NCBI GenBank assembly: GCA_041649715.1
Contig: JBAZMP010000002.1
Location: forward strand, 132,964 to 196,963
Reading direction: 5' to 3'
From: Patescibacteria group bacterium
GTDB lineage: Bacteria > Patescibacteriota > Patescibacteriia > JAXHNJ01
DNA length: 64,000 nucleotides
Below are positions 6,574-62,501 of the stretch, one piece after another (the first letter of the stretch is position 1; each line of letters opens with the position of its first letter). Made by a program: the position numbers and the translations under genes. The notes below the pieces were generated by a model. That model was not told the origin of the DNA. It did not search any database and saw only the letters and a list, made by a program, of their open reading frames with translations.

Positions 6574-7836
6574 ATGAACCGTTATTTTTTCATCCTCGGC
6601 CGCAATCAAGCCTTGTCTCTGGCGGAAAGCGCCGCTTTTTTTAGCCGCGAACAGATGGTTTTTAATCCGCTTTATTTAGGCCGGGATTTTTTGGTCTGGG
6701 AGACGGAAAATAAAATTGATTTGAAGGCACTGAATAACCGGTTGGGAGGAGTGATTAAAGCCGGAGAAATATGGGCGGAAAGGCCGAAAAAGCCGGATCT
6801 GCTCGCCGACCTTTCCGAAGCCCTGGGCTTTTCCACTATCAGTAAATTTCTGCCTGTCGGCGCAGAAAAATTATTCTTAGGCTTTAGTCTGTATTTTGAC
6901 GAGGGCAAGAGCTTCATTTATCTGCAAAAAGGCTTGGAAAGGCATTTTTTAAGCCTAAAAAAAGAGATAAAGGAAACCGGCCAAAAATTGCGCTTGGTCA
7001 CTTCGCGCGGCCAGACTCTTTCTTCCGTGGTGGTGAAGAAAAATAAATTATTGACGGCCGGGGCGGAAATCGTCATTTTTGTCACACCCGAAAAAATGTT
7101 TATCGGGAAAACTTCAAGCGTCCAAGATTTTGAGGGTTATAGTTTCCGGGATTTCCAGCGGCCCGGACGGGATATGCGGATCGGTTTGATGCCGCCAAAA
7201 GTTGCCCAAATCATGGTAAATTTAGCGCAGGCCCGGGAAAGTGAGGTCATCTTGGATCCTTTTGCCGGCTGCGGCACGATTTTGCAGGAAGCGATACTCT
7301 TGGGCTATAAAAATTTGGTCGGTTCGGATAATAACCCGCGGGCCTTAAGCCAGACCCGGCAGAATTTAGAATGGTTATGCAGAAATTATAAGATTGACGA
7401 GAAAAAAATCAATGTAAAATTAATGCCGATCGATGTCCGGCAGATATACAAAGACTTAAGCCCCAATTCAGTGGACACAATTGTGACCGAACCATATCTG
7501 GGGCCGGCGCTTGATGATCGACCGGGGGAAGGCAAAATAAGAATGGTGGCGGCTAATCTGAGCCAGCTTTACTTGGATTTTTTCACCGCCATTAAAAGAG
7601 TTTTGAAACCCGGCGGCAAAATAGTCATGATCTGGCCGGTTTTCCGCACTCCGGCCGGCAAGCAGTTTTTGCCGATCTTGGAAAAAGTTCTGGCCAAGGG
7701 TTTTGAAAAAATCAACCTGATTCCCGAAGTTTTTAAGGCCAACGATCTGGAGGAACTAACAAGCCGGGGCTCGATTCTATATTCCCGGGAAGACCAGAAT
7801 GTTTTAAGGGAAATTTTCGTTTTTAAAAATGTTTAG
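6574..7836 (+). CDS. putative RNA (N2-G / N6-A type) SAM-dependent methyltransferase, Trm11/RlmL-like
   Basis: SAM motif I 'ILDPFAGCGTILQEA' and catalytic-type motif 'IVTEPYLG' (NPPY variant). N-terminal THUMP-like region. Confidence 0.7.
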   Translation: MNRYFFILGRNQALSLAESAAFFSREQMVFNPLYLGRDFLVWETENKIDLKALNNRLGGVIKAGEIWAERPKKPDLLADLSEALGFSTISKFLPVGAEKLFLGFSLYFDEGKSFIYLQKGLERHFLSLKKEIKETGQKLRLVTSRGQTLSSVVVKKNKLLTAGAEIVIFVTPEKMFIGKTSSVQDFEGYSFRDFQRPGRDMRIGLMPPKVAQIMVNLAQARESEVILDPFAGCGTILQEAILLGYKNLVGSDNNPRALSQTRQNLEWLCRNYKIDEKKINVKLMPIDVRQIYKDLSPNSVDTIVTEPYLGPALDDRPGEGKIRMVAANLSQLYLDFFTAIKRVLKPGGKIVMIWPVFRTPAGKQFLPILEKVLAKGFEKINLIPEVFKANDLEELTSRGSILYSREDQNVLREIFVFKNV

Positions 7837-46480: not shown

Positions 46481-46557
46481 GAAAATAAGCATATGTATTC
46501 TGTCTGCATATAAAAGTTATAAAGGCGGTTTGCAATTTAATAAGTAGCGGAAAGAAC

Positions 46558-46644
46558 GGAGAGGTCGCATAGTGGTCTAGTGCGCTTGCTTGGAGAGCAA
46601 GTAGACCTTCACCGGTCTCGCGAGTTCAAATCTCGCCCTCTCCG
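46558..46644 (+). tRNA. tRNA-Ser(GGA), no encoded CCA
   Basis: Acceptor GGAGAGG/CCTCTCC. Anticodon arm CTTGC-ttGGAga-GCAAG. Long variable arm. T arm GCGAG-ttcaaat-CTCGC. Discriminator G. Confidence 0.92.
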
Positions 46645-46761
46645 TTCTTCCCGCTACAATCTTGCCCTCTCCGCCAATTATTTTAAATAAAAAAATCGCA
46701 AAAGTCTTGCATTTTTCTGGCGGGTGTTTGTTAAGATAAATTAAGTCGCAATTTGATTGGT

Positions 46762-53875: not shown

Positions 53876-55681
53876 ATGCCAGATTCGCAAGTAGACGAAA
53901 TAAAACAGCGTCTTAATATCGCCGAAGTTATTGGCGAATACATCAAGTTGACGCCGGCGGGGACGAATTTTAAGGCGAGGTGCCCGTTTCACAACGAAAA
54001 GACGCCTTCTTTTATGGTCTCTACCGATAAGCAGATCTGGCATTGCTTCGGCTGCGACAAAGGCGGGGACATTTTCACTTTTGTCCAGGAGATCGAAGGA
54101 GTCGATTTTCCGGAAGCCCTGGGGATTTTGGCCAAAAAAGCCGGCGTAAAACTGGTCGCCCGGAATCCTCTCGTGGCCAGTCAGAAGACGAAGCTTTTGG
54201 AAATCATAAAATGGGCGGCTGCTTATTATTACAAAACATTGCTGGATTCGCCGCGGGCGGATAAGGCCCGCGCCTATCTGAAAAGCCGGGGAGTGAGCGA
54301 AGAGATGATCGATGATTTTAAATTAGGCTACGCCCTTATGGATTGGGAAAACCTGAATAATTTTTTGAAGAAGAAGGGCTATGCCGAAGAGGATATCTTT
54401 TTGGCCGGCCTGACCATCAAAAAAGAAAGAGGGGTGGGTTTTTATGACCGTTTCCGCGGCCGCCTTCTTTTTCCCATTGCCAATGTTCACGGCGAGATCA
54501 TCGGTTTTTCCGGCCGCCTTATCGAACAAGAGGAAGGCAAGGAAATGGCCAAATATATCAATACACCCAATACTTTGGTCTATAACAAAAGCCAGGTCCT
54601 TTTCGGGCTGGATAAGGCCAAGACCGCGATCAAAGAAAACAAATTGGCGATTTTGGTGGAGGGGAACATGGATGTCTTGTCTTCTTATCAGGCGGGAGTG
54701 AAAAACGTGGTCGGTTCTTCGGGTACGGCTTTGACCGCGGAACAGGTGGGCCTTTTAAAACGTTACAGCCCGAACTTCGCTTTTTGTTTTGACACGGATG
54801 CGGCCGGCCAGCAGGCGACGTTAAGGGGCCTGGAGGAGGTTTTTAAACAGGGAGTGAATATCAAGATTATTGAACTGCCTTTTGGCAAGGATCCGGACGA
54901 ATGCATCAAAAAAGACAAAGATTTATGGGTGAAAGCGGCGCAAGAAGCGAAATCAGTGATGGAATATTATTTTTCCCTGGCGGAGAAAAAATTTGATTTT
55001 ACCCAGCTGGAAGATAAAAAAGAGGCGGCCAAATTGCTTCTTTCTTTGATTTCCAAACTGACCGATTCCATCGAACAGACACATTATCTGCAGAAACTAA
55101 GCGGTTTGATCCGGGTGGAAGAGAATATTCTGCGTGACAGCCTGAACAAAATTATCAGGCAGAAGAAATATTCTTCCGAGGGCGGAACGGAAGGAGCCAA
55201 GCCCTTTGCGCCTAAGAACAAGGAGAAAAATTTAATGCTCAGCGAGATGATCCTAGGGCTGGGCCTAAAGTTCAGTCAAGAACTGCCCCACATCATAAAC
55301 AGCTTAAAAGCCGAGGCGGTCCATGATTCTCTCCACTCTCTTTACAAAAGACTGATAATTTATTATAATCAGAAGCACGAGCTAAATTTAGAGGAATTCA
55401 GGTCTGAAGCGCGGGAGGCGGATCCTGATTTTGGCCAAAAAATTGATTATTTACTTCTTTTGGCGGAAAAAGAGCTTGCCGAAGAGCCGGATGAAAAATG
55501 GCTGGAAAACGAAAGAAAAGAAATGGTTAAATCATTGAATAAAGAACATATCACCGGCCAGATCAAAGAGCTTAGTTTAAAAATAAAAGAGTCGGAAAAA
55601 ATGCAGGATAAGGCGTCATTAGTCCAATTATATCAGGAATTCAGCCAATTAACCGAAGAATTAAAAAATCTTCGCTCTTAA
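53876..55681 (+). CDS. dnaG: DNA primase
   Basis: CHC2 zinc finger 'CPFHNEKTPSFMVSTDKQIWHCFGCDKGGDIFTF'. Toprim 'LVEGNMDVLS' and 'CFDTDAAGQQA'. Confidence 0.95.
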   Translation: MPDSQVDEIKQRLNIAEVIGEYIKLTPAGTNFKARCPFHNEKTPSFMVSTDKQIWHCFGCDKGGDIFTFVQEIEGVDFPEALGILAKKAGVKLVARNPLVASQKTKLLEIIKWAAAYYYKTLLDSPRADKARAYLKSRGVSEEMIDDFKLGYALMDWENLNNFLKKKGYAEEDIFLAGLTIKKERGVGFYDRFRGRLLFPIANVHGEIIGFSGRLIEQEEGKEMAKYINTPNTLVYNKSQVLFGLDKAKTAIKENKLAILVEGNMDVLSSYQAGVKNVVGSSGTALTAEQVGLLKRYSPNFAFCFDTDAAGQQATLRGLEEVFKQGVNIKIIELPFGKDPDECIKKDKDLWVKAAQEAKSVMEYYFSLAEKKFDFTQLEDKKEAAKLLLSLISKLTDSIEQTHYLQKLSGLIRVEENILRDSLNKIIRQKKYSSEGGTEGAKPFAPKNKEKNLMLSEMILGLGLKFSQELPHIINSLKAEAVHDSLHSLYKRLIIYYNQKHELNLEEFRSEAREADPDFGQKIDYLLLLAEKELAEEPDEKWLENERKEMVKSLNKEHITGQIKELSLKIKESEKMQDKASLVQLYQEFSQLTEELKNLRS

Positions 55682-55722: not shown

Positions 55723-56910
55723 ATGTCCAGGCAGGCAAAAAAGAAGAATAAATCAAAAAAATCTTTTAATAAAAAAAAGGCCGCTAAACCAAGAAAGACG
55801 CCGAAAGAGAAGTATCTAAAGGCGGATTTTCCCCGGGAAAAAATCGAAGATTTGATCAATAAGGGCCGTTCGCGCGGTTTTATCACCGAGACGGAGGTTC
55901 TTTATGTTTTGCCGGATTTAGAGGATTATTTGTTGGAATACGAGCAATTGATGGATAAATTTGAAAATCTCGGCATTGTCATCGTGGAATCGCCGACCTC
56001 TATTTTAGCGACAAAAAAAGAAAAGGAAGAATACCAGGAAAAATTCGGGCACGGGAAGGACGCCCGCCGTTTTGACCTGGGCGACATTTCCGATGATTCC
56101 ATCCAGATGTATTTAAGGGAAATCGGCAAAGTCCATCTTTTAAAGACGGAAGAAGAGGTCAGTCTGGCCAAAAGGAAGGAAAAGGGGGACATGGAAGCGC
56201 AAAAAAAACTCGTGGAAGCGAATTTGCGTTTAGTGGTGTCCATCGCCAAAAAATTTACCGGCCGTTCATTGTCCCTGTTGGATTTGATTCAGGAGGGCAA
56301 TATCGGTTTATTCCGGGCCGTGGAAAAATTTGATTATCGCAAGGGCTATAAATTTTCCACTTATGCCACCTGGTGGATCAGGCAGGCGATCACCCGGGCG
56401 CTGGCCGATCAATCCCGCACCATCCGTATTCCCGTTCATATGGTGGAGACGATAAATCGTTTCCAGCAGGTGGAAAGACAATTGATTCAGGATCTGGGCC
56501 GCGAGCCCCTGCCGGAAGAGATTGCCGCCGAAATGGGCGAACCGGTGGAAAAAATCCGCCACATCATCAATATTTCCCAGGATACTGTCTCTTTGGAAAC
56601 CTCGGTGGGCGACGAAGAAGAAGATTCCACTTTGGGTGACTTTATCGAAGACGTAAAAACCATCACGCCGGACCGGGTGGCCGCTTTACAACTCCTGAAG
56701 GATCACGTAAAAGATATTATCAAGGAATTGACCCCCCGCGAGCAGAAGATATTGGAAATGCGTTTTGGATTGCTTGACGGCGTGGCCCATACCTTGGAGG
56801 AAGTAGGCAAGGAATTCGGGGTGACTCGCGAAAGGATCCGCCAGATCGAGGCCAAGGCTTTGGAGAGAATCCAGGAACATCACGGGATGAGAAAGCTGAA
56901 GGATTACTAA
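55723..56910 (+). CDS. rpoD: RNA polymerase sigma factor RpoD
   Basis: Region 2 '[39 protein letters not shown]'. Region 4 '[24 protein letters not shown]'. Confidence 0.96.
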
Positions 56911-56927
56911 TAATTAGTACCCAAAGC

Positions 56928-56999
56928 TCCGCGATAGCTCAATGGTAGAGCAACCGGCTGTTAACCGGTAGGTTGTCGGTCCGAATCCGACTCGCGGAG
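56928..56999 (+). tRNA. tRNA-Asn(GTT)-like gene with non-canonical T-loop (TCCGAAT)
   Basis: TCCGCGA ta GCTC aatggta GAGC a ACCGG ctGTTaa CCGGT aggtt GTCGG tccgaat CCGAC TCGCGGA g. Position 55 is C instead of the near-universal U. Flanked by TACCCAAAGC / GCTTTGGGTA. Confidence 0.7.
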
Positions 57000-57020
57000 C
57001 TTTGGGTATTTTATTTATTT

Positions 57021-57222
57021 ATGGTATCCCTGGTTGCCGCTGCAACCGGGACCCCGGCGCGAAGCGCCAGGGGGAGCAGCCGGCTGTTAACCGGTAGAGT
57101 CTGTCCTGAGTGGCAACGAAGGATTGTCGGTCCTGCGCCCGAGGCGCACCCGCCTTGGGCGGGGAATCCGACTCGCCCCGTACCAAAGCGCTTGCGCTTT
57201 GGTACGGGGCTCGCGGAGCTGG
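57021..57222 (+). pseudogene. second tRNA-Asn-like copy broken into four blocks by GC-rich hairpin insertions
   Basis: Blocks 57074-57097 (23/24 match to copy 1), 57124-57133, 57164-57176 and 57210-57220. They are separated by inserts of 26, 30 and 33 nt. The 5' part is replaced by hairpins. Confidence 0.55.
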
Positions 57223-57254
57223 CGAGATTATTTTTTTGTCGTCTAGCCAGAATT

Positions 57255-57295: not shown

Positions 57296-57622
57296 TTATG
57301 CTCCCAATATCTGATGACGAGGCAAGAGCTTTTTCAGGAGAGCAGGCGTCGCATTTTCCAGCTGGAAAGCCTGGCGGAAAGGTTTCGCAATCTTGGGGTG
57401 AAAAAGGCTCAAGACTTCTTCCAGACTGCCTTCTCTTCGGGTTCCCCCGTGCTCGGGATCTTGAGCGATGGCCACGAAAGATTTTTCTTGCCGGGTGATG
57501 GAGATGGTAAGGCAAGGTTCCAGATTCCAGAGGGTATATTCCTCGATTTCGACCACTTGGCCGTTTATTACCTGGATGGTATCCGGTGGCAGTTTTGCCC
57601 TATCGGCTAATCCTGGTTCCAT
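57296..57622 (-). CDS. hypothetical protein
   Basis: Strong RBS 'GAGAGGAGGAAAT' before the ATG on the minus strand. The overlapping plus-strand ORFs lack one. Confidence 0.6.
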   Translation of the reverse strand: MEPGLADRAKLPPDTIQVINGQVVEIEEYTLWNLEPCLTISITRQEKSFVAIAQDPEHGGTRREGSLEEVLSLFHPKIAKPFRQAFQLENATPALLKKLLPRHQILGA

Positions 57623-57706
57623 ATTTCCTCCTCTCGAGTTTGGGCGGAAAGAACGAATTTATAAGGTATCTAGATGTTATTAAAATAAGATACATTTGTC
57701 AATATC

Positions 57707-57736
57707 TTGACAAATGCGGCTCATTTGCTCTAAGAT
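57707..57736 (+). promoter_or_regulatory. promoter TTGACA-N18-TAAGAT
   Basis: TTGACA 57707-57712, TAAGAT 57731-57736. Confidence 0.55.
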
Positions 57737-57746
57737 GTAATTACTT

Positions 57747-57803
57747 ATGAAACTTGCGAAGCAAAATCTGAATAACAATAATAACCGTCTTTTGGCCGGG
57801 TGA
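57747..57803 (+). CDS. candidate 18-codon leader ORF MKLAKQNLNNNNNRLLAG (six Asn codons)
   Basis: ATG about 4-10 nt after the predicted TSS, with no SD. Codons AAT CTG AAT AAC AAT AAT AAC. The 3' end GGCCGGG is complementary to the terminator 5' arm. Confidence 0.35.
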   Translation: MKLAKQNLNNNNNRLLAG

Positions 57804-57832
57804 GTTTCATTTAATTTGTAATTATGAGGAAA

Positions 57833-57857
57833 CCCGGCCAAATGAGCCGGTTTTTTT
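57833..57857 (+). terminator. intrinsic terminator (attenuator candidate)
   Basis: CCGGC-caaatga-GCCGG followed by TTTTTTT. CCCGGCC (57833-57839) can alternatively pair with GGCCGGG (57794-57800). Confidence 0.75.
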
Positions 57858-57867
57858 GTTTATAGCC

Positions 57868-58148
57868 GGGCGCCGCGCTCAGGGGTAGTTGAGCTGGTAC
57901 CCCGCATAACTCACTGTGTTCGTATGCGGGGCAGGCAACGCCGGTAATATATTTTAATGATTATTCCAGCTCTCCTGTAGTTTAATTGGTAAAACGCTGC
58001 ACTGTTAATGCAGAGATTGGAGGTTCGAGTCCTCCTGGGAGAGCTGGGATAATCATTGTAGCACTGCTTGTCCCGTAGGAACAGAAAGCGACTTACGGGA
58101 TTAATGCGGAGACCGCTGGTTCGAATCCAGCCCCCTGAGCGCGGCGCC
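57868..58148 (+). pseudogene. degenerate tRNA(Asn-like) gene interrupted by hairpins and by a complete nested tRNA-Asn cassette
   Basis: 18-bp closing helix GGGCGCCGCGCTCAGGGG / CCCCTGAGCGCGGCGCC. 5' block 'tcaggggtagttgagctggta'. 3' blocks 'gcactg' + 'ttaatgcggagacc GCTGG ttcgaat CCAGC cccctga g'. Hairpins at 57900-57931 and 58071-58100. Confidence 0.55.
57971..58043 (+). tRNA. tRNA-Asn(GTT), canonical
   Basis: TCTCCTG ta GTTT aattggta AAAC g CTGCA ctGTTaa TGCAG agatt GGAGG ttcgagt CCTCC TGGGAGA g. Closely resembles E. coli tRNA-Asn. Flanked by GATTATTCCAGC / GCTGGGATAATC. Confidence 0.93.
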
Positions 58149-58294
58149 AGTGTTTCGTCTGTCCGTCGAAACCCTGAAAGGGTGAAGGCGGAAGCCCACC
58201 TGGAGGAGCCAAATATTATTTAAATATTTGGTAGAAAAGAAAAACGCCCCACGAAGCGACAATTGTTTTGTGCTTTGTCGGGCGTGTACTGAGA

Positions 58295-59000: not shown

Positions 59001-59462
59001 ATGGACCCAAACGCCATTAATTTTTTAAGAGATTCGCTGGCTCACCACCATAATTTGAGGAATTCTTTGGACGGCAAAGCCTCTTTTTTATTGGCCATTG
59101 CCGGGGTGGTTTTCGGCTTAAGCGTTATCAGACTGGAAAAAGTCCAGTTTGTGGTGATTGCCATTACCGCTTTTCTGACCATTCTTTTGACGGTCTTCGC
59201 CGTCTTTCTGCCTTACCGCGGGAAAATGAAAGAGAAAATCGGCCTGATGTGCTGGTGGGGTTTCGCCGGAAAAAGTTATGAAAGCTACCAGGAAGAAGTT
59301 AATCGAGTTATTAAAACTGACGAAGCGATTGCCGACGAATATAAGAAGGAGATCTGGAATCTGGCCAATTATTCTCTAAGACCGAAGTCAGTCTTGCTGA
59401 AATGGGCGAGTTTCGTTCTGACGGTCGGGCTTTTGGCCGGGTTTGTTCTGTTTTTCGTTTAA
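59001..59462 (+). CDS. 3-TM protein, DUF5706 / Pycsar-effector (PycTM)-like
   Basis: 'HHHNLRNSLDGKASFLLAIAGVVFGL' followed by a second TM and a C-terminal TM. The pattern was recalled from memory and was not searched. Confidence 0.45.
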   Translation: MDPNAINFLRDSLAHHHNLRNSLDGKASFLLAIAGVVFGLSVIRLEKVQFVVIAITAFLTILLTVFAVFLPYRGKMKEKIGLMCWWGFAGKSYESYQEEVNRVIKTDEAIADEYKKEIWNLANYSLRPKSVLLKWASFVLTVGLLAGFVLFFV

Positions 59463-59612
59463 ATAATAGAATCAAAATAGCCGAATTTTAGGGCTATTTT
59501 TTTGTTTGACTAAAAATCATTCTTATGGTAAGAAACATTAACGCCCTTTGACAGTTTTATAATTTTTCAAGTCACAAAACACAGAAATCTTCAAGAAAAC
59601 AAGGAGGTGGAG

Positions 59613-62501
59613 ATGGAAGAGAATCATGGTTTTAACCTGGAAACGCCCCTGGCTGTGACCCCTGATGATATTAAGAGCATTTCTGATCCATCTCCGCGTT
59701 TTCGGAGCTGGGCCTGGCAAATGTATCTTCGCCGCGAGCTTAACCTGATCGTGGAGGCGGTCATCTGGTTGGGCAAAGCGGCCAATATCATCGAAGCCCT
59801 TGCTTATCTTAACCGTCTGACGGTTGAGTATCCGGAAACCGAGCTGAAGGTCGTGGTCAAGGATCTGGAGAATATCCGAGATCCCGGCCCGAAAATGGTG
59901 AAGCTAAGAACCCTCGTGAGAGGGATCAGAGCCAAAGCGAAGGATCCGCAGCTCACGCGCGGCGCCTTGACGCATCAGGCGGTCAATGACCTTTTTAGCG
60001 GTCGGCTGATGTCTTCCGGCGGGAGAAGAACCGACAAGACTTCTTCTCAGCTTGAATTGTTCAAGCTTGAGAAAAGCCGTCAGATTCTTCTTTTTGATGA
60101 ATTCGCCGAGGAGTCAGTTCAAAGCGAAAAATCGGAAAAAATGCGTCTGAGCCGCACCCGAGTGCTTAATCGGATTCAGCATCACTGGAAAGTGATAAGG
60201 TCGGCCATCGAAAAGCAGGGTTGGCCGGCCTGGCGACGGAAAAGGCGAAACGTCAATTGTCTGGAAAAATGGCTGGCGATTCTTTTCGGCGAACACGCCG
60301 TTAAGCTTGGCGCCGAAGTAGGCTTCGGCGAACACTTTAAGGTGTTGACCGAGCTGACTTGGGCCGCCGCCGCGAGCTATTGGCTGAGAGAAAGACAAAG
60401 GCCGATGATTTTGTTCCGGGAGATAAACGTGATTGCCTCGCGTCATCACCTTGGCGGCGGACGCATTGACGCTCTTGAGGTGCGTCGCATCGGCGGAAAG
60501 TTGCCGAATCGGAGGCAAGACCGGATACTTACCGAAATGAGCCGTAACCGCTATAAATCCGTCGGCCATCTGATCATGGAGCTTGGCAAACGCTTTGACC
60601 AGCCGGTTGAAGTGACGGTCATCGACTGGAAATCTTTGGTCGGCGACGTGGTCACCGGGGATAAAGAATGGTCTTCGACGGATTTAAAAAAAGAACCCCA
60701 ATTCGCCGATCAGGAACAGATGAAGAGGTATCTGACGCTGATCCCTCTGGATTGCTACTTGGTCGGTCAAAAAGGTGAGCTTTGGCGACCCGAAGACGTG
60801 ACTCTGCGCGGGGAACTCTGGTATTTGATGCCTGACCAGGCGCCCATTGTTCATGAAGTGAGCATGGCCGTCGAGCAAATGCAGGATTATTTTTTGAATT
60901 ACGTCGTGCTTGAGTGGCCCGAAGCTTCCCGGCGGGCTTTGGCCAGGGAAGTCAATAACATTTTCCTTCGCCATCTGGTCGAGATCCATGAAAAAGGGGA
61001 AAGTCGCCCGAAGAAAGGAGCTTTCGGCAATAATCATAACGGGAATCAGGCTCTGCCACTTTTCCCGGAAGAAAAAGTAAAAGTCGTGTCCGTCCGGGAG
61101 ATAATCCGAGCGCATCGGGATAAATATCCGCTCTTTGCCGACCGCCGGCAGATTCTCCAGATTGTGGGCAAGCGCCGCAAGACAGGGACCCATAAATTGG
61201 AGATGAATTACAGCAAGCTGCTAGAGGCCATGGCAAAAGGGGAGGTAAAAACCTACAGTTGGTCGGATCCCGCCCAGCCTTTTACCGTGCAGTGCCTGAT
61301 GGACGATCACCGGGATTCTGACCCTTCCATGCGTATTTATCCCGACTGGTTACGTTTCTGGTGTTTCGGTTGCCGCACGGGCGGAAGCATTGCCATTGAA
61401 TCCGTGCCGGGCGACCTCGCCAATCGACTGGCGCCAAAATGGCAGGAAATCAGCCGCCAGCCCACTAAGCTTGACTGGTCGGTCTTGCCGGTTATTCCCG
61501 AAGAACATGACCGGATTATGCGCCGCGCCCAGCAGTTGCTGGCCTTATCTTTTTGGCCTAGTCCGGCGGTGGAATATCTGCGTCAAGAAAGGAGAGTAGA
61601 TCCTTCCCTGGCTTATGAATACGGCGCGGGTTACGGCAATAACAGCTTGATCATCGGGTTGATGAGTGAAGGTTATTGCTTAGATGATCTGATCCGCTAC
61701 GGATTCGTAAAAATCACGCCTAATTTCTGGCGGGCCAGCAGTCTGATCGGATTGTTGCAGGAAGAGTTCGGTCTTTCCGCTCAGGAAATCACGCGCGAGT
61801 ACTTATCTAAGAAGACTCAGCGGACGGAAATTGGTTATCCCTATTCAGTTCTGGCTGGCCGCGTGACTTTCCCTTTGAAGCTTGAAGGCAAACACACCAA
61901 TTTCTATGGCCGGATAATTCCGCCTACAGAGGAGATGCTGACGCACATCAAGCTTTCGATGCTGGGCGAAAAAGTCGTCCAGGGCGGCTTCAATACCGAC
62001 ATTCTTTTGTCAGACGCTAAGGAGGTGAAATTTGCCGAAGCGGTCATTGATACTCTGACCTTAGCCCAGATGGGTTATCGGAACGTGATCGCTTTGGTCG
62101 GCACCGAGAATGTCGAGATTCTCAAAGCGGCGATCCGGGCCCGCAAGAATATTGGCTTGTCCCTTGATTACGACAAGTTCGGCCGGAAGCTGACCCTGAG
62201 GACGATCAGGCGTTATTTGGCCACGGTGAATTTGGGCGGCGAAAAAGTCTGGCGGGAAATTGATCAGTATGTCCGCGAGATTGAAGAAGCGATCAAGAGG
62301 GAGGAAACGGGAGAAAAAGAAGCTCTTCATTTCGGGGAATATTTCCGCCGGCTGGGTTACCTGGGGATTGAGGATTTCACCGCTAGATTCGTGGCTGACC
62401 ATCGGGAATGTCTTGGTCGTGAATTTGATTTCAACACCTGGTGGCAGAGATTCGGTTGTCAAAACGCACCTTTATCTTGGGAGGAAGACAATAACGCGTA
62501 G
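59613..62501 (+). CDS. fusion protein: RecB-family PD-(D/E)XK nuclease-like N-terminal half + CHC2 zinc finger + Toprim primase-like C-terminal half
   Basis: RBS 'AAGGAGGTGGAG'. 'GGGRIDALEV', 'VTVIDWKSL', 'EQMKRYLTL' (D / DxK / QxxxY). 'CLMDDHRDSDPSMRIYPDWLRFWCFGCRTGGSIAIE' (CHC2). 'FAEAVIDTLTLAQMGYRNVIALVGT' and 'LSLDYDKFG' (Toprim E, DxD). Confidence 0.75.
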   Translation: MEENHGFNLETPLAVTPDDIKSISDPSPRFRSWAWQMYLRRELNLIVEAVIWLGKAANIIEALAYLNRLTVEYPETELKVVVKDLENIRDPGPKMVKLRTLVRGIRAKAKDPQLTRGALTHQAVNDLFSGRLMSSGGRRTDKTSSQLELFKLEKSRQILLFDEFAEESVQSEKSEKMRLSRTRVLNRIQHHWKVIRSAIEKQGWPAWRRKRRNVNCLEKWLAILFGEHAVKLGAEVGFGEHFKVLTELTWAAAASYWLRERQRPMILFREINVIASRHHLGGGRIDALEVRRIGGKLPNRRQDRILTEMSRNRYKSVGHLIMELGKRFDQPVEVTVIDWKSLVGDVVTGDKEWSSTDLKKEPQFADQEQMKRYLTLIPLDCYLVGQKGELWRPEDVTLRGELWYLMPDQAPIVHEVSMAVEQMQDYFLNYVVLEWPEASRRALAREVNNIFLRHLVEIHEKGESRPKKGAFGNNHNGNQALPLFPEEKVKVVSVREIIRAHRDKYPLFADRRQILQIVGKRRKTGTHKLEMNYSKLLEAMAKGEVKTYSWSDPAQPFTVQCLMDDHRDSDPSMRIYPDWLRFWCFGCRTGGSIAIESVPGDLANRLAPKWQEISRQPTKLDWSVLPVIPEEHDRIMRRAQQLLALSFWPSPAVEYLRQERRVDPSLAYEYGAGYGNNSLIIGLMSEGYCLDDLIRYGFVKITPNFWRASSLIGLLQEEFGLSAQEITREYLSKKTQRTEIGYPYSVLAGRVTFPLKLEGKHTNFYGRIIPPTEEMLTHIKLSMLGEKVVQGGFNTDILLSDAKEVKFAEAVIDTLTLAQMGYRNVIALVGTENVEILKAAIRARKNIGLSLDYDKFGRKLTLRTIRRYLATVNLGGEKVWREIDQYVREIEEAIKREETGEKEALHFGEYFRRLGYLGIEDFTARFVADHRECLGREFDFNTWWQRFGCQNAPLSWEEDNNA

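Follow-up and report, generated by a model that had tools for sequence, protein, structure and literature searches.

Why should a very short open reading frame (ORF), a third of it asparagine codons, stand between a promoter and a transcription terminator directly upstream of a transfer RNA (tRNA) gene for asparagine? The question is raised by a locus near the end of the window, that is, the whole 64-kb stretch of Patescibacteria DNA analysed here (64,000 nucleotides (nt) of contig JBAZMP010000002.1). The answer that we consider probable is that the locus is a ribosome-mediated leader-peptide transcription attenuator, through which the supply of Asn-tRNA(Asn) would set the expression of an accessory tRNA-Asn gene. 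The parts from which such a device would be built can be read directly from the window:

57707..57736, + strand: sigma-70-type promoter (pattern scan; TTGAC of the -35 box invariant in 6/6 homologs)
57747..57803, + strand: leader ORF, 18 codons plus TGA, MKLAKQNLNNNNNRLLAG (reading of the window, ORF search, homolog comparison)
57765..57785, + strand: regulatory codon zone AAT CTG AAT AAC AAT AAT AAC (homolog comparison; AATAATAACC invariant)
57747..57757, + strand: region 1, the 5' end of the ORF with the AUG; partner strand 57800-57810 (folding, duplex energies)
57788..57810, + strand: region 2, the end of the ORF with its stop codon plus the next 7 nt; 57788-57801 on the 5' side pairs with region 3, 57800-57810 on the 3' side with region 1
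57832..57845, + strand: region 3, the 3' strand of the antiterminator, overlapping the terminator 5' arm CCGGC at 57834-57838 (pattern scan, folding)
57846..57857, + strand: region 4, the terminator 3' arm GCCGG at 57846-57850 and T7 at 57851-57857 (pattern scan; equivalents in the leaders L171, L178, L179 and L180, listed below)

An earlier note on this DNA had described a promoter TTGACA-N18-TAAGAT followed within about 10 nt by an ATG, and behind it an ORF with six Asn codons in seven positions, and both are present. The -35 hexamer TTGACA (57707-57712) and the -10 hexamer TAAGAT (57731-57736), separated by an 18-nt spacer, give 10/12 matches in the pattern scan; the ATG at 57747 follows the -10 box at a distance of 10 nt, and the frame is closed by TGA at 57801-57803. 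Asn is encoded by codon 7 (57765-57767) and by codons 9-13 (57771-57785). The same note had cautioned that AT-rich DNA easily yields runs of AAT and AAC, a concern that the counts do not bear out: the run AATAAYAAYAAYAAY occurs a single time in the window on both strands taken together and in 0 of 100 shuffles, and in 1.75 Mb of related loci just two ATG-initiated ORFs of 8-45 codons hold at least four consecutive Asn codons, both belonging to the family described here. The leader feature is not a chance product.

The decisive material is comparative. Retrieval of related metagenomic contigs and loci, both DnaG-based and RpoD-based, yielded a homologous leader in five further species:

L171 (= L087 = L172), RpoD 94-96% identical: leader MKIRQQNLDSNNNRLSAG, then an intact tRNA-Asn
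L178, RpoD 83%: leader MKFTRQNNNNNNNNRYMAG, then an intact tRNA-Asn
L179, RpoD 83%: leader MRFTRENNNDNNNRFMTG, then an intact tRNA-Asn
L180, RpoD 83%: leader MKFIRRNNNNNNNRFMVG, then a nested tRNA-Asn like that of the window
L102 (15002-15150), RpoD 79%: leader MKQIFFRLNNNNNPLLSV, no tRNA, a pilin-like gene next

The frame, the length of 18-19 codons, the ATG and the TGA are kept in all six ORFs, and the TGA sits within the motif GGGTGA in five leaders and GTGTGA in L102. Asn codons number 6, 4, 8, 6, 7 and 5 per ORF at the same positions, making up 36 of 109 sense codons over the six species. The sole indel among the ORFs is a 3-nt insertion that amounts to one extra Asn codon, the repeat units of the zone are AAT and AAC only, and what replaces them are single-nucleotide neighbours (GAT, AGC) or, at two positions, Leu/Arg codons. 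Homologous loci that had lost the ORF or exchanged its Asn codons for others had been named as grounds for abandoning an attenuator; neither was found, all five species keeping the ORF with 4-8 Asn codons. Upstream, TTGAC(A) is present at -35 in 6/6 leaders, with a -10 box (TAAGAT, TAATAT or TAAACT) 16-18 nt downstream and a gap of 6-10 nt from the -10 box to the ATG, again in 6/6, a distance that fits leaderless initiation. Further members were not found when nhmmer profiles of three and then six leaders were run against all 183 loci, and a weak match in L155 was rejected since it lies inside a membrane-protein gene. In an RpoD scan of GTDB genomes the closest among the matches listed are 60-69% identical and carry no leader, and in viral contigs the core pattern of the family has 0 matches, one other pattern matching unrelated coding sequence only. 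An ORF antisense to the leader, in which the Asn run reads in reverse as a Leu run and which is open for 53 codons in the window, was likewise discarded, being 19-42 codons long in the homologs and lacking a conserved start. The pilin-like gene beside the L102 leader has its own TATAAT-N6-ATG and thus appears to be leaderless too.

Can the RNA of this leader switch between two folds? GGCCGGG at 57794-57800 is complementary to CCCGGCC at 57833-57839, as the earlier note had seen, and the complementarity extends further, to 13 of 14 nt between 57788-57801 and 57832-57845, with a duplex energy of -20 kcal/mol that is matched by 0 of 2000 random 16-mers drawn from the window. The competing intrinsic terminator, CCGGC-N7-GCCGG with T7 at 57834-57857, is there as predicted, but with 5 base pairs (bp) and about -8 kcal/mol it is not the strong one that had been announced. 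The second long-range pairing that had been suggested, ATGAAACT with AGTTTCAT, is also present and corresponds to the region 1:2 helix (57747-57757 with 57800-57810). Its energy is -14.5 kcal/mol in the window (random fraction 0.04) and -15.5 to -21.6 kcal/mol in L178, L179 and L180; in L171 it is absent. For the 2:3 pairing, none of 2000 random 16-mers does as well in L171, and the fractions are 0.0015 in L178 and 0.02 in L180. When a ribosome footprint was modelled by forcing 28 nt to remain unpaired and taking the minimum-energy fold, the RNA adopted the antiterminator fold with the first codon of the Asn run in the A site and the terminator fold with the stop codon in the A site, in 5/5 tRNA-linked leaders each time. 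The switch is therefore thermodynamically feasible: a mutually exclusive antiterminator, covered by the ribosome at the stop codon and free at the Asn stall, exists in all five tRNA-linked leaders and not in L102. The homologs, the kept pairings and these folds support the trp/his/pheST-type geometry that had been proposed. The strong 1:2 helix of L178, L179 and L180 completes the trp-type 1:2 / 2:3 / 3:4 topology, so that in these species termination would be the default when the leader is not translated.

The terminators themselves have diverged in an instructive way. Their helix is CCGGC/GCCGG, UCCCGG/CCGGGA or UCCCGC/GCGGGA depending on the subfamily, and the pairing between the end of the ORF and the terminator is kept throughout. 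The hexamer CCCGGC stays the same while the 3' arm shifts register (GCCGG, CCGGGA, GCGGGA). Its retention is explained by the need to pair with the ORF end, and a constant CCCGGC facing varying 3' arms therefore indicates that the terminator helix has shifted around a doubly constrained strand. Terminator scans report the GC-rich hairpin with T6-T7 in the window, L171 and L178; the equivalents in L179 and L180 were recognised by sequence and folding. A MAFFT alignment sets the subfamily terminators one column out of register, and the pairs were therefore tabulated by hand and by folding.

How, then, would the element work? Transcription would start about 3-4 nt before the AUG, which we infer to be at about 57743-57744 in the window, and on the near-leaderless messenger RNA (mRNA) a ribosome, presumably coupled to the polymerase ahead, would initiate translation of the 18-codon ORF. 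With Asn-tRNA plentiful, the ribosome would reach the UGA and cover the last codons, UUGGCCGGG, leaving CCCGGCC free to enter the CCGGC/GCCGG terminator hairpin, and RNA polymerase would stop at the T-run. With Asn-tRNA scarce, it would stall on the first of the six Asn codons, at least 3 codons upstream of GGCCGGG, and would also mask region 1 at the 5' end; the GGCCGGG/CCCGGCC antiterminator would then form and the polymerase would read into the tRNA-Asn unit 11 nt further on. The cell could gain tRNA-Asn where its constitutive copy falls short or, should Asn be synthesised on the tRNA, extra substrate.

The gene that would be regulated belongs to a locus of conserved order. In the window, part of a 255-kb metagenome contig, the leader lies downstream of dnaG (53876-55681), rpoD (55723-56910) and a first tRNA-Asn gene, and the synteny dnaG-rpoD-tRNA-Asn is widespread in related metagenomic contigs. 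The tRNA features concerned are:

56928..57000, + strand: tRNA-Asn(GTT) #1, directly after rpoD and outside the attenuator (ARAGORN, Rfam, synteny)
57869..58149, + strand: tRNA-Asn-derived outer shell enclosing tRNA-Asn #2 (folding, repeat search, L171 orthology)
57971..58044, + strand: intact tRNA-Asn(GTT) #2 (ARAGORN; Rfam 69.5 bits)

A tRNA-Asn(GTT) gene or nested unit begins 6-21 nt after the T-run of the terminator in the window, L171, L178, L179 and L180, that is, behind five of the six leaders, a spacing that leaves no room for a separate tRNA promoter. Linkage was counted over 45 fetched loci with rpoD, a downstream tRNA-Asn and at least 600 nt beyond. Counting the window, seven loci carry two tRNA-Asn genes after rpoD, and in five of these seven a leader precedes the second gene; among loci with a single tRNA-Asn, L102 alone has one. 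Since the carriers group into about three subclades, these counts lack phylogenetic independence. The tRNAs behind the leaders also form a paralog type of their own, with a D-stem GUUN/NAAC as against GCUC/GAGC in tRNA-Asn #1, which is treated here as the constitutive copy. Analogous leaders before tRNA-Ser or tRNA-Leu genes were not found in the window, nor, in a search prompted by the idea of Asn synthesis on the tRNA, was AsnRS or GatCAB seen among the ten larger window ORFs scanned.

What begins 11 nt after the T-run is, in the window, not the plain tRNA gene that had been supposed. A unit does start at 57869, but it is the outer stem of a very stable 281-nt composite (57869-58149, z = -7.5) in which the tRNA-Asn lies nested. 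The shell is closed by a perfect stem of 17 bp (57869-57885 with 58132-58148) and comprises the 5' part of a D-arm, a hairpin at 57900-57931, the long-range helix GGGCAGGCA/UGCUUGUCC and a T-arm at 58115-58131, and a further 15 bp (57956-57970 with 58045-58059) prolong the acceptor stem of the inner tRNA. The inner tRNAs of the window and L180 are 97% identical, with three compensatory double changes in the extension stem. At the orthologous position L171 has an ordinary uninterrupted tRNA-Asn (7703-7776), whose acceptor and flanking stems differ from the outer stem of the window in a compensatory manner and whose T-arm is identical; the window shell is therefore an ortholog of a normal second tRNA-Asn gene. 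The tRNA-in-shell design recurs behind the leader of L180 (2906-3180) and around tRNA-Asn #1 in L171 (7267-7513, z = -7.75) and L178 (7293-7627, z = -9.7), always with the acceptor, a D-arm with an inserted hairpin and the T-arm of a tRNA-Asn-like gene, the anticodon arm missing. It matches no Rfam family, whether at the gathering threshold or with E relaxed to 10. Group I introns are known at position 35/36 of tRNA-Asn in Patescibacteria (PMC13011429), and the second tRNA-Asn of L176 (7382-7605; also L181) carries one between anticodon-loop positions 35 and 36 (Rfam 61.6 bits), in a gene that ARAGORN misses. Such an intron was considered for the window insert 57886-58100 and rejected: no Intron_gpI match appears even at E up to 10, so the nested structure is something other than a group I intron.

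It is tempting to carry the argument one step further, though here we speak only tentatively. A tRNA gene would be governed by its own decoding, in that stalling caused by Asn shortage, or by loss or cleavage of tRNA-Asn #1 with its C55, unusual for a tRNA and present in this clade, would induce the accessory paralog, which in the window and L180 would come from a tRNA-within-tRNA shell precursor; this would amount to a homeostasis or backup circuit joined to an undescribed gene architecture.

Several observations weigh against the attenuator, whose case is wholly comparative and computational. There is no Shine-Dalgarno sequence before the leader ORF, as the earlier note had conceded in calling the ORF near-leaderless. 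The conserved 6-10 nt gap between -10 box and ATG would account for this, the mRNA being leaderless or nearly so, but the 5' untranslated region predicted for the window and L171 is about 3-4 nt and not 0. The terminator stem has just 5 bp. The ribosome-free RNAs of the window and L171 fold into the antiterminator, and since their 1:2 helix is weak or absent, their default would be read-through, unlike trp. Covariation in the alternative helices had been proposed as a check: in the 2:3 helix conservation is mostly at the level of sequence, the changes being wobble-compatible and not fully compensatory. The module is missing from close relatives (L173, RpoD 94%; L174, 88%; L176 and L181, 84-85%) as well as from L182 and L183, which makes its distribution patchy, and two loci with two tRNA-Asn genes, L174 and L101, have no leader. 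In the window the regulated product is predicted to be a composite RNA that needs maturation, and the selective logic is conjecture, because extra tRNA does not relieve asparagine starvation as such. To these points are added the orphan copy L102 and the invariance of AATAATAACC, both of which also bear on the alternatives.

L102 keeps promoter, ORF and terminator with no tRNA within 2.4 kb downstream, which would suit an independent micropeptide or small-RNA gene that had its own promoter and terminator and merely sat beside a tRNA-Asn integration hot spot, the tRNA being expressed by unregulated leakage. The region after tRNA-Asn #1 is indeed highly variable between relatives, and not one nucleotide varies in the 10-nt block AATAATAACC, more constancy than coding for Asn needs. 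The homolog ORFs, however, differ about equally at codon positions 1, 2 and 3 (93, 85 and 99 differences); outside the Asn run the peptide is poorly conserved, which fits a sensory ORF rather than a functional product, and its Asn residues number anywhere between 4 and 8. Conservation of the last codons is that of an RNA strand pairing with the terminator, and five of six copies abut a tRNA-Asn with no space for another promoter. L102 itself lacks the 1:2 and 2:3 pairings, and every state predicted for it terminates; that this stand-alone copy, which has no tRNA downstream, has lost the alternative pairings is expected if they serve tRNA regulation. We regard an independent gene as improbable.

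A switch that works without translation is still less probable. In such a switch a protein or RNA would bind the AAU/AAC repeats, or a sigma-70 pause or internal promoter would lie at AATAAT, and the open frame would be incidental. An ATG placed 6-10 nt past the -10 box, an in-frame TGA and an indel of 3 nt only, in six species, tell against an incidental frame, and the third positions of the repeats are T or C only, every triplet thus reading Asn and matching the anticodon of the downstream gene. It is true that the alternative helices exist irrespective of translation, that a Shine-Dalgarno sequence is lacking while AATAATAACC is invariant, and that promoter-like sites with the Asn run as their -10 box occur inside the leader (window 57754-57782, TTGCGA-17-AATAAT; L178 7735-7764, TTTACC-18-AATAAT). 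The internal -35-like hexamer, however, is not conserved in L171, where the scan reports the main promoter only, and Rfam gives no known riboswitch or T-box.

The least probable of the three is a non-functional relic, left as tRNA-Asn genes repeatedly inserted, duplicated and decayed here, for example a scar or the cargo end of a mobile element: a locus full of partial and nested tRNA-Asn copies and hairpin insertions, variable, defence-like or mobile genes next to it in several genomes and a patchy phyletic distribution would suit it, but a scar would not retain a 57-nt frame and two alternative helices, and promoter, ORF, stop, terminator and antiterminator are intact at an RpoD identity of only 79-83%, with the tRNA behind the leader intact as well (66-70 bits). 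All three alternatives have less support than an attenuator responsive to Asn-tRNA supply.

Leader-peptide attenuation is a textbook mechanism, to our knowledge described only for protein-coding operons (amino-acid biosynthesis, a few aminoacyl-tRNA synthetases, resistance genes), while bacterial tRNA genes are usually thought to be under global growth-rate control only. One close parallel is E. coli pheM-pheST, whose leader peptide governs the genes of phenylalanyl-tRNA synthetase. It shares with the Asn leader, as read here, a short ORF rich in one codon, the choice between terminator and antiterminator, charged tRNA supply as the signal and a target in the translation apparatus of the same amino acid. 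The two have no sequence relationship, and pheM-pheST serves a protein-coding synthetase operon through an ORF with a ribosome-binding site, whereas here a tRNA gene of a Patescibacterium stands behind a leaderless or near-leaderless ORF for Asn. With trpL, hisL, thrL, leuL and pheL the element has in common the logic of 1:2 / 2:3 / 3:4 helices, the codon run, a stop codon placed so that region 2 is covered and an intrinsic terminator directly before the structural gene; it differs in that region 1 includes the AUG, the target is an RNA gene and not a biosynthetic operon, and the untranslated RNA of the window and L171, their 1:2 helix being weak or absent, would default to read-through. Rfam leader families remain far below threshold (Trp_leader RF00513 17.6 vs 41 bits, Leu_leader RF00512 15.8 vs 50 bits), and the resemblance to Rfam amino-acid leaders is one of mechanism only.

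T-box riboswitches need no ribosome: a specifier codon and the conserved T-box sequence let them bind uncharged tRNA directly. Like them, the Asn leader would read tRNA charging and choose between terminator and antiterminator upstream of translation-related genes; unlike them, it would be read by the ribosome, and it is only about 110 nt long. Rfam reports no riboswitch or T-box in the leader at the gathering threshold or at E up to 10, tRNA matches being the only ones, and direct tRNA sensing of the T-box kind was set aside, because the homologs do not keep the UGGC/UGGN bulge with which the window RNA could pair to the 3' end of the tRNA. Mycobacterial polycysteine short ORFs, which are leaderless (Canestrari et al., bioRxiv 10.1101/834739), attenuate translation of the gene behind them. 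They are sensory ORFs with a run of one codon, as the Asn leader would be, and ribosome stalling in the run remodels RNA structure downstream; the difference lies in the output, which for the Asn leader is an intrinsic terminator before a tRNA gene. The earlier note knew of no case of a leader peptide controlling a tRNA gene; likewise, no report of one, or of an Asn leader, was found in open-access full text and a genome-wide attenuator survey.

The surroundings of the leader promoter hold features of their own. A perfect palindrome, ATTTGTCAA-TATC-TTGACAAAT (57694-57715), contains the -35 boxes of both the leader promoter and a divergent promoter and may be an operator. The divergent promoter serves an orphan gene of 108 amino acids (aa) (57296-57622, minus strand) with a strong Shine-Dalgarno sequence and no Pfam domain, which was rejected as a part of the module: it is absent from L171, and its one homolog, 38% identical, has an unrelated context. 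The spacer of the leader promoter, CGGCTCATTTG (57712-57727), is perfectly complementary over 11 nt to the loop and 3' arm of the terminator, CAAATGAGCCG (57839-57854), which would be relevant only for transcripts starting upstream of 57712; no such complementarity is seen in the homologs.

Between tRNA-Asn #1 and the leader lie, besides the orphan gene, a terminator and a partial copy of tRNA-Asn #1 (57022-57226). The copy begins in the D-loop and reaches the 3' end. What it keeps of the tRNA is identical to tRNA #1, but GC-rich hairpins interrupt it in the D-loop, variable loop and T-loop and ahead of the 3' strand of the acceptor (z = -6.9). One of them, at 57175-57210, looks like the stem that flanks tRNA #1, minus the tRNA. 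L173 shares this partial copy, and there a hairpin differs by a compensatory change (GGUUGC/GCAACC to GGUCGC/GCGACC). Both tRNA-Asn #1 (56918-57008) and tRNA-Ser (46543-46659) sit on long leader-trailer helices, which add 9-14 bp to the acceptor stem and pair the discriminator base. The sequence of the helix differs wholly between species and yet always pairs (ACCCAAAGC in the window, GGCGCGAGC in L171, CCCCGCCCGC in L173, GACGCACATTTTG in L102); its role may lie in processing, for instance by RNase III. At tRNA position 55 a U is near-universal; the T-loop of tRNA-Asn #1, UCCGAAU (56980-56986), has a C there, as it does in L171 and L173, whereas the normal UUCGA is found in relatives further removed and in the tRNA-Asn behind the leader. 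Beyond the tRNA unit, 59001-62501 encodes a PycTM-like two-transmembrane effector of 153 aa (Pfam and PADLOC matches) and a protein of 964 aa that combines a Toprim domain with a CHC2 zinc finger and weakly matches 'RTasDnaG-like' in PADLOC, which suggests a defence or mobile island beside the tRNA-Asn locus.

Group I introns, nested tRNAs and expansion hairpins make the tRNA-Asn locus behind rpoD unusually inventive. If the attenuator reading is true, it would add to these a direct feedback loop, in which the speed of decoding a codon sets how much of its cognate tRNA is supplied, and a concrete, testable case of gene-specific tRNA regulation in bacteria. It would likewise mean that leaderless sensory ORFs are used outside Actinobacteria, and that genome-reduced Patescibacteria rely on compact RNA-based regulation.

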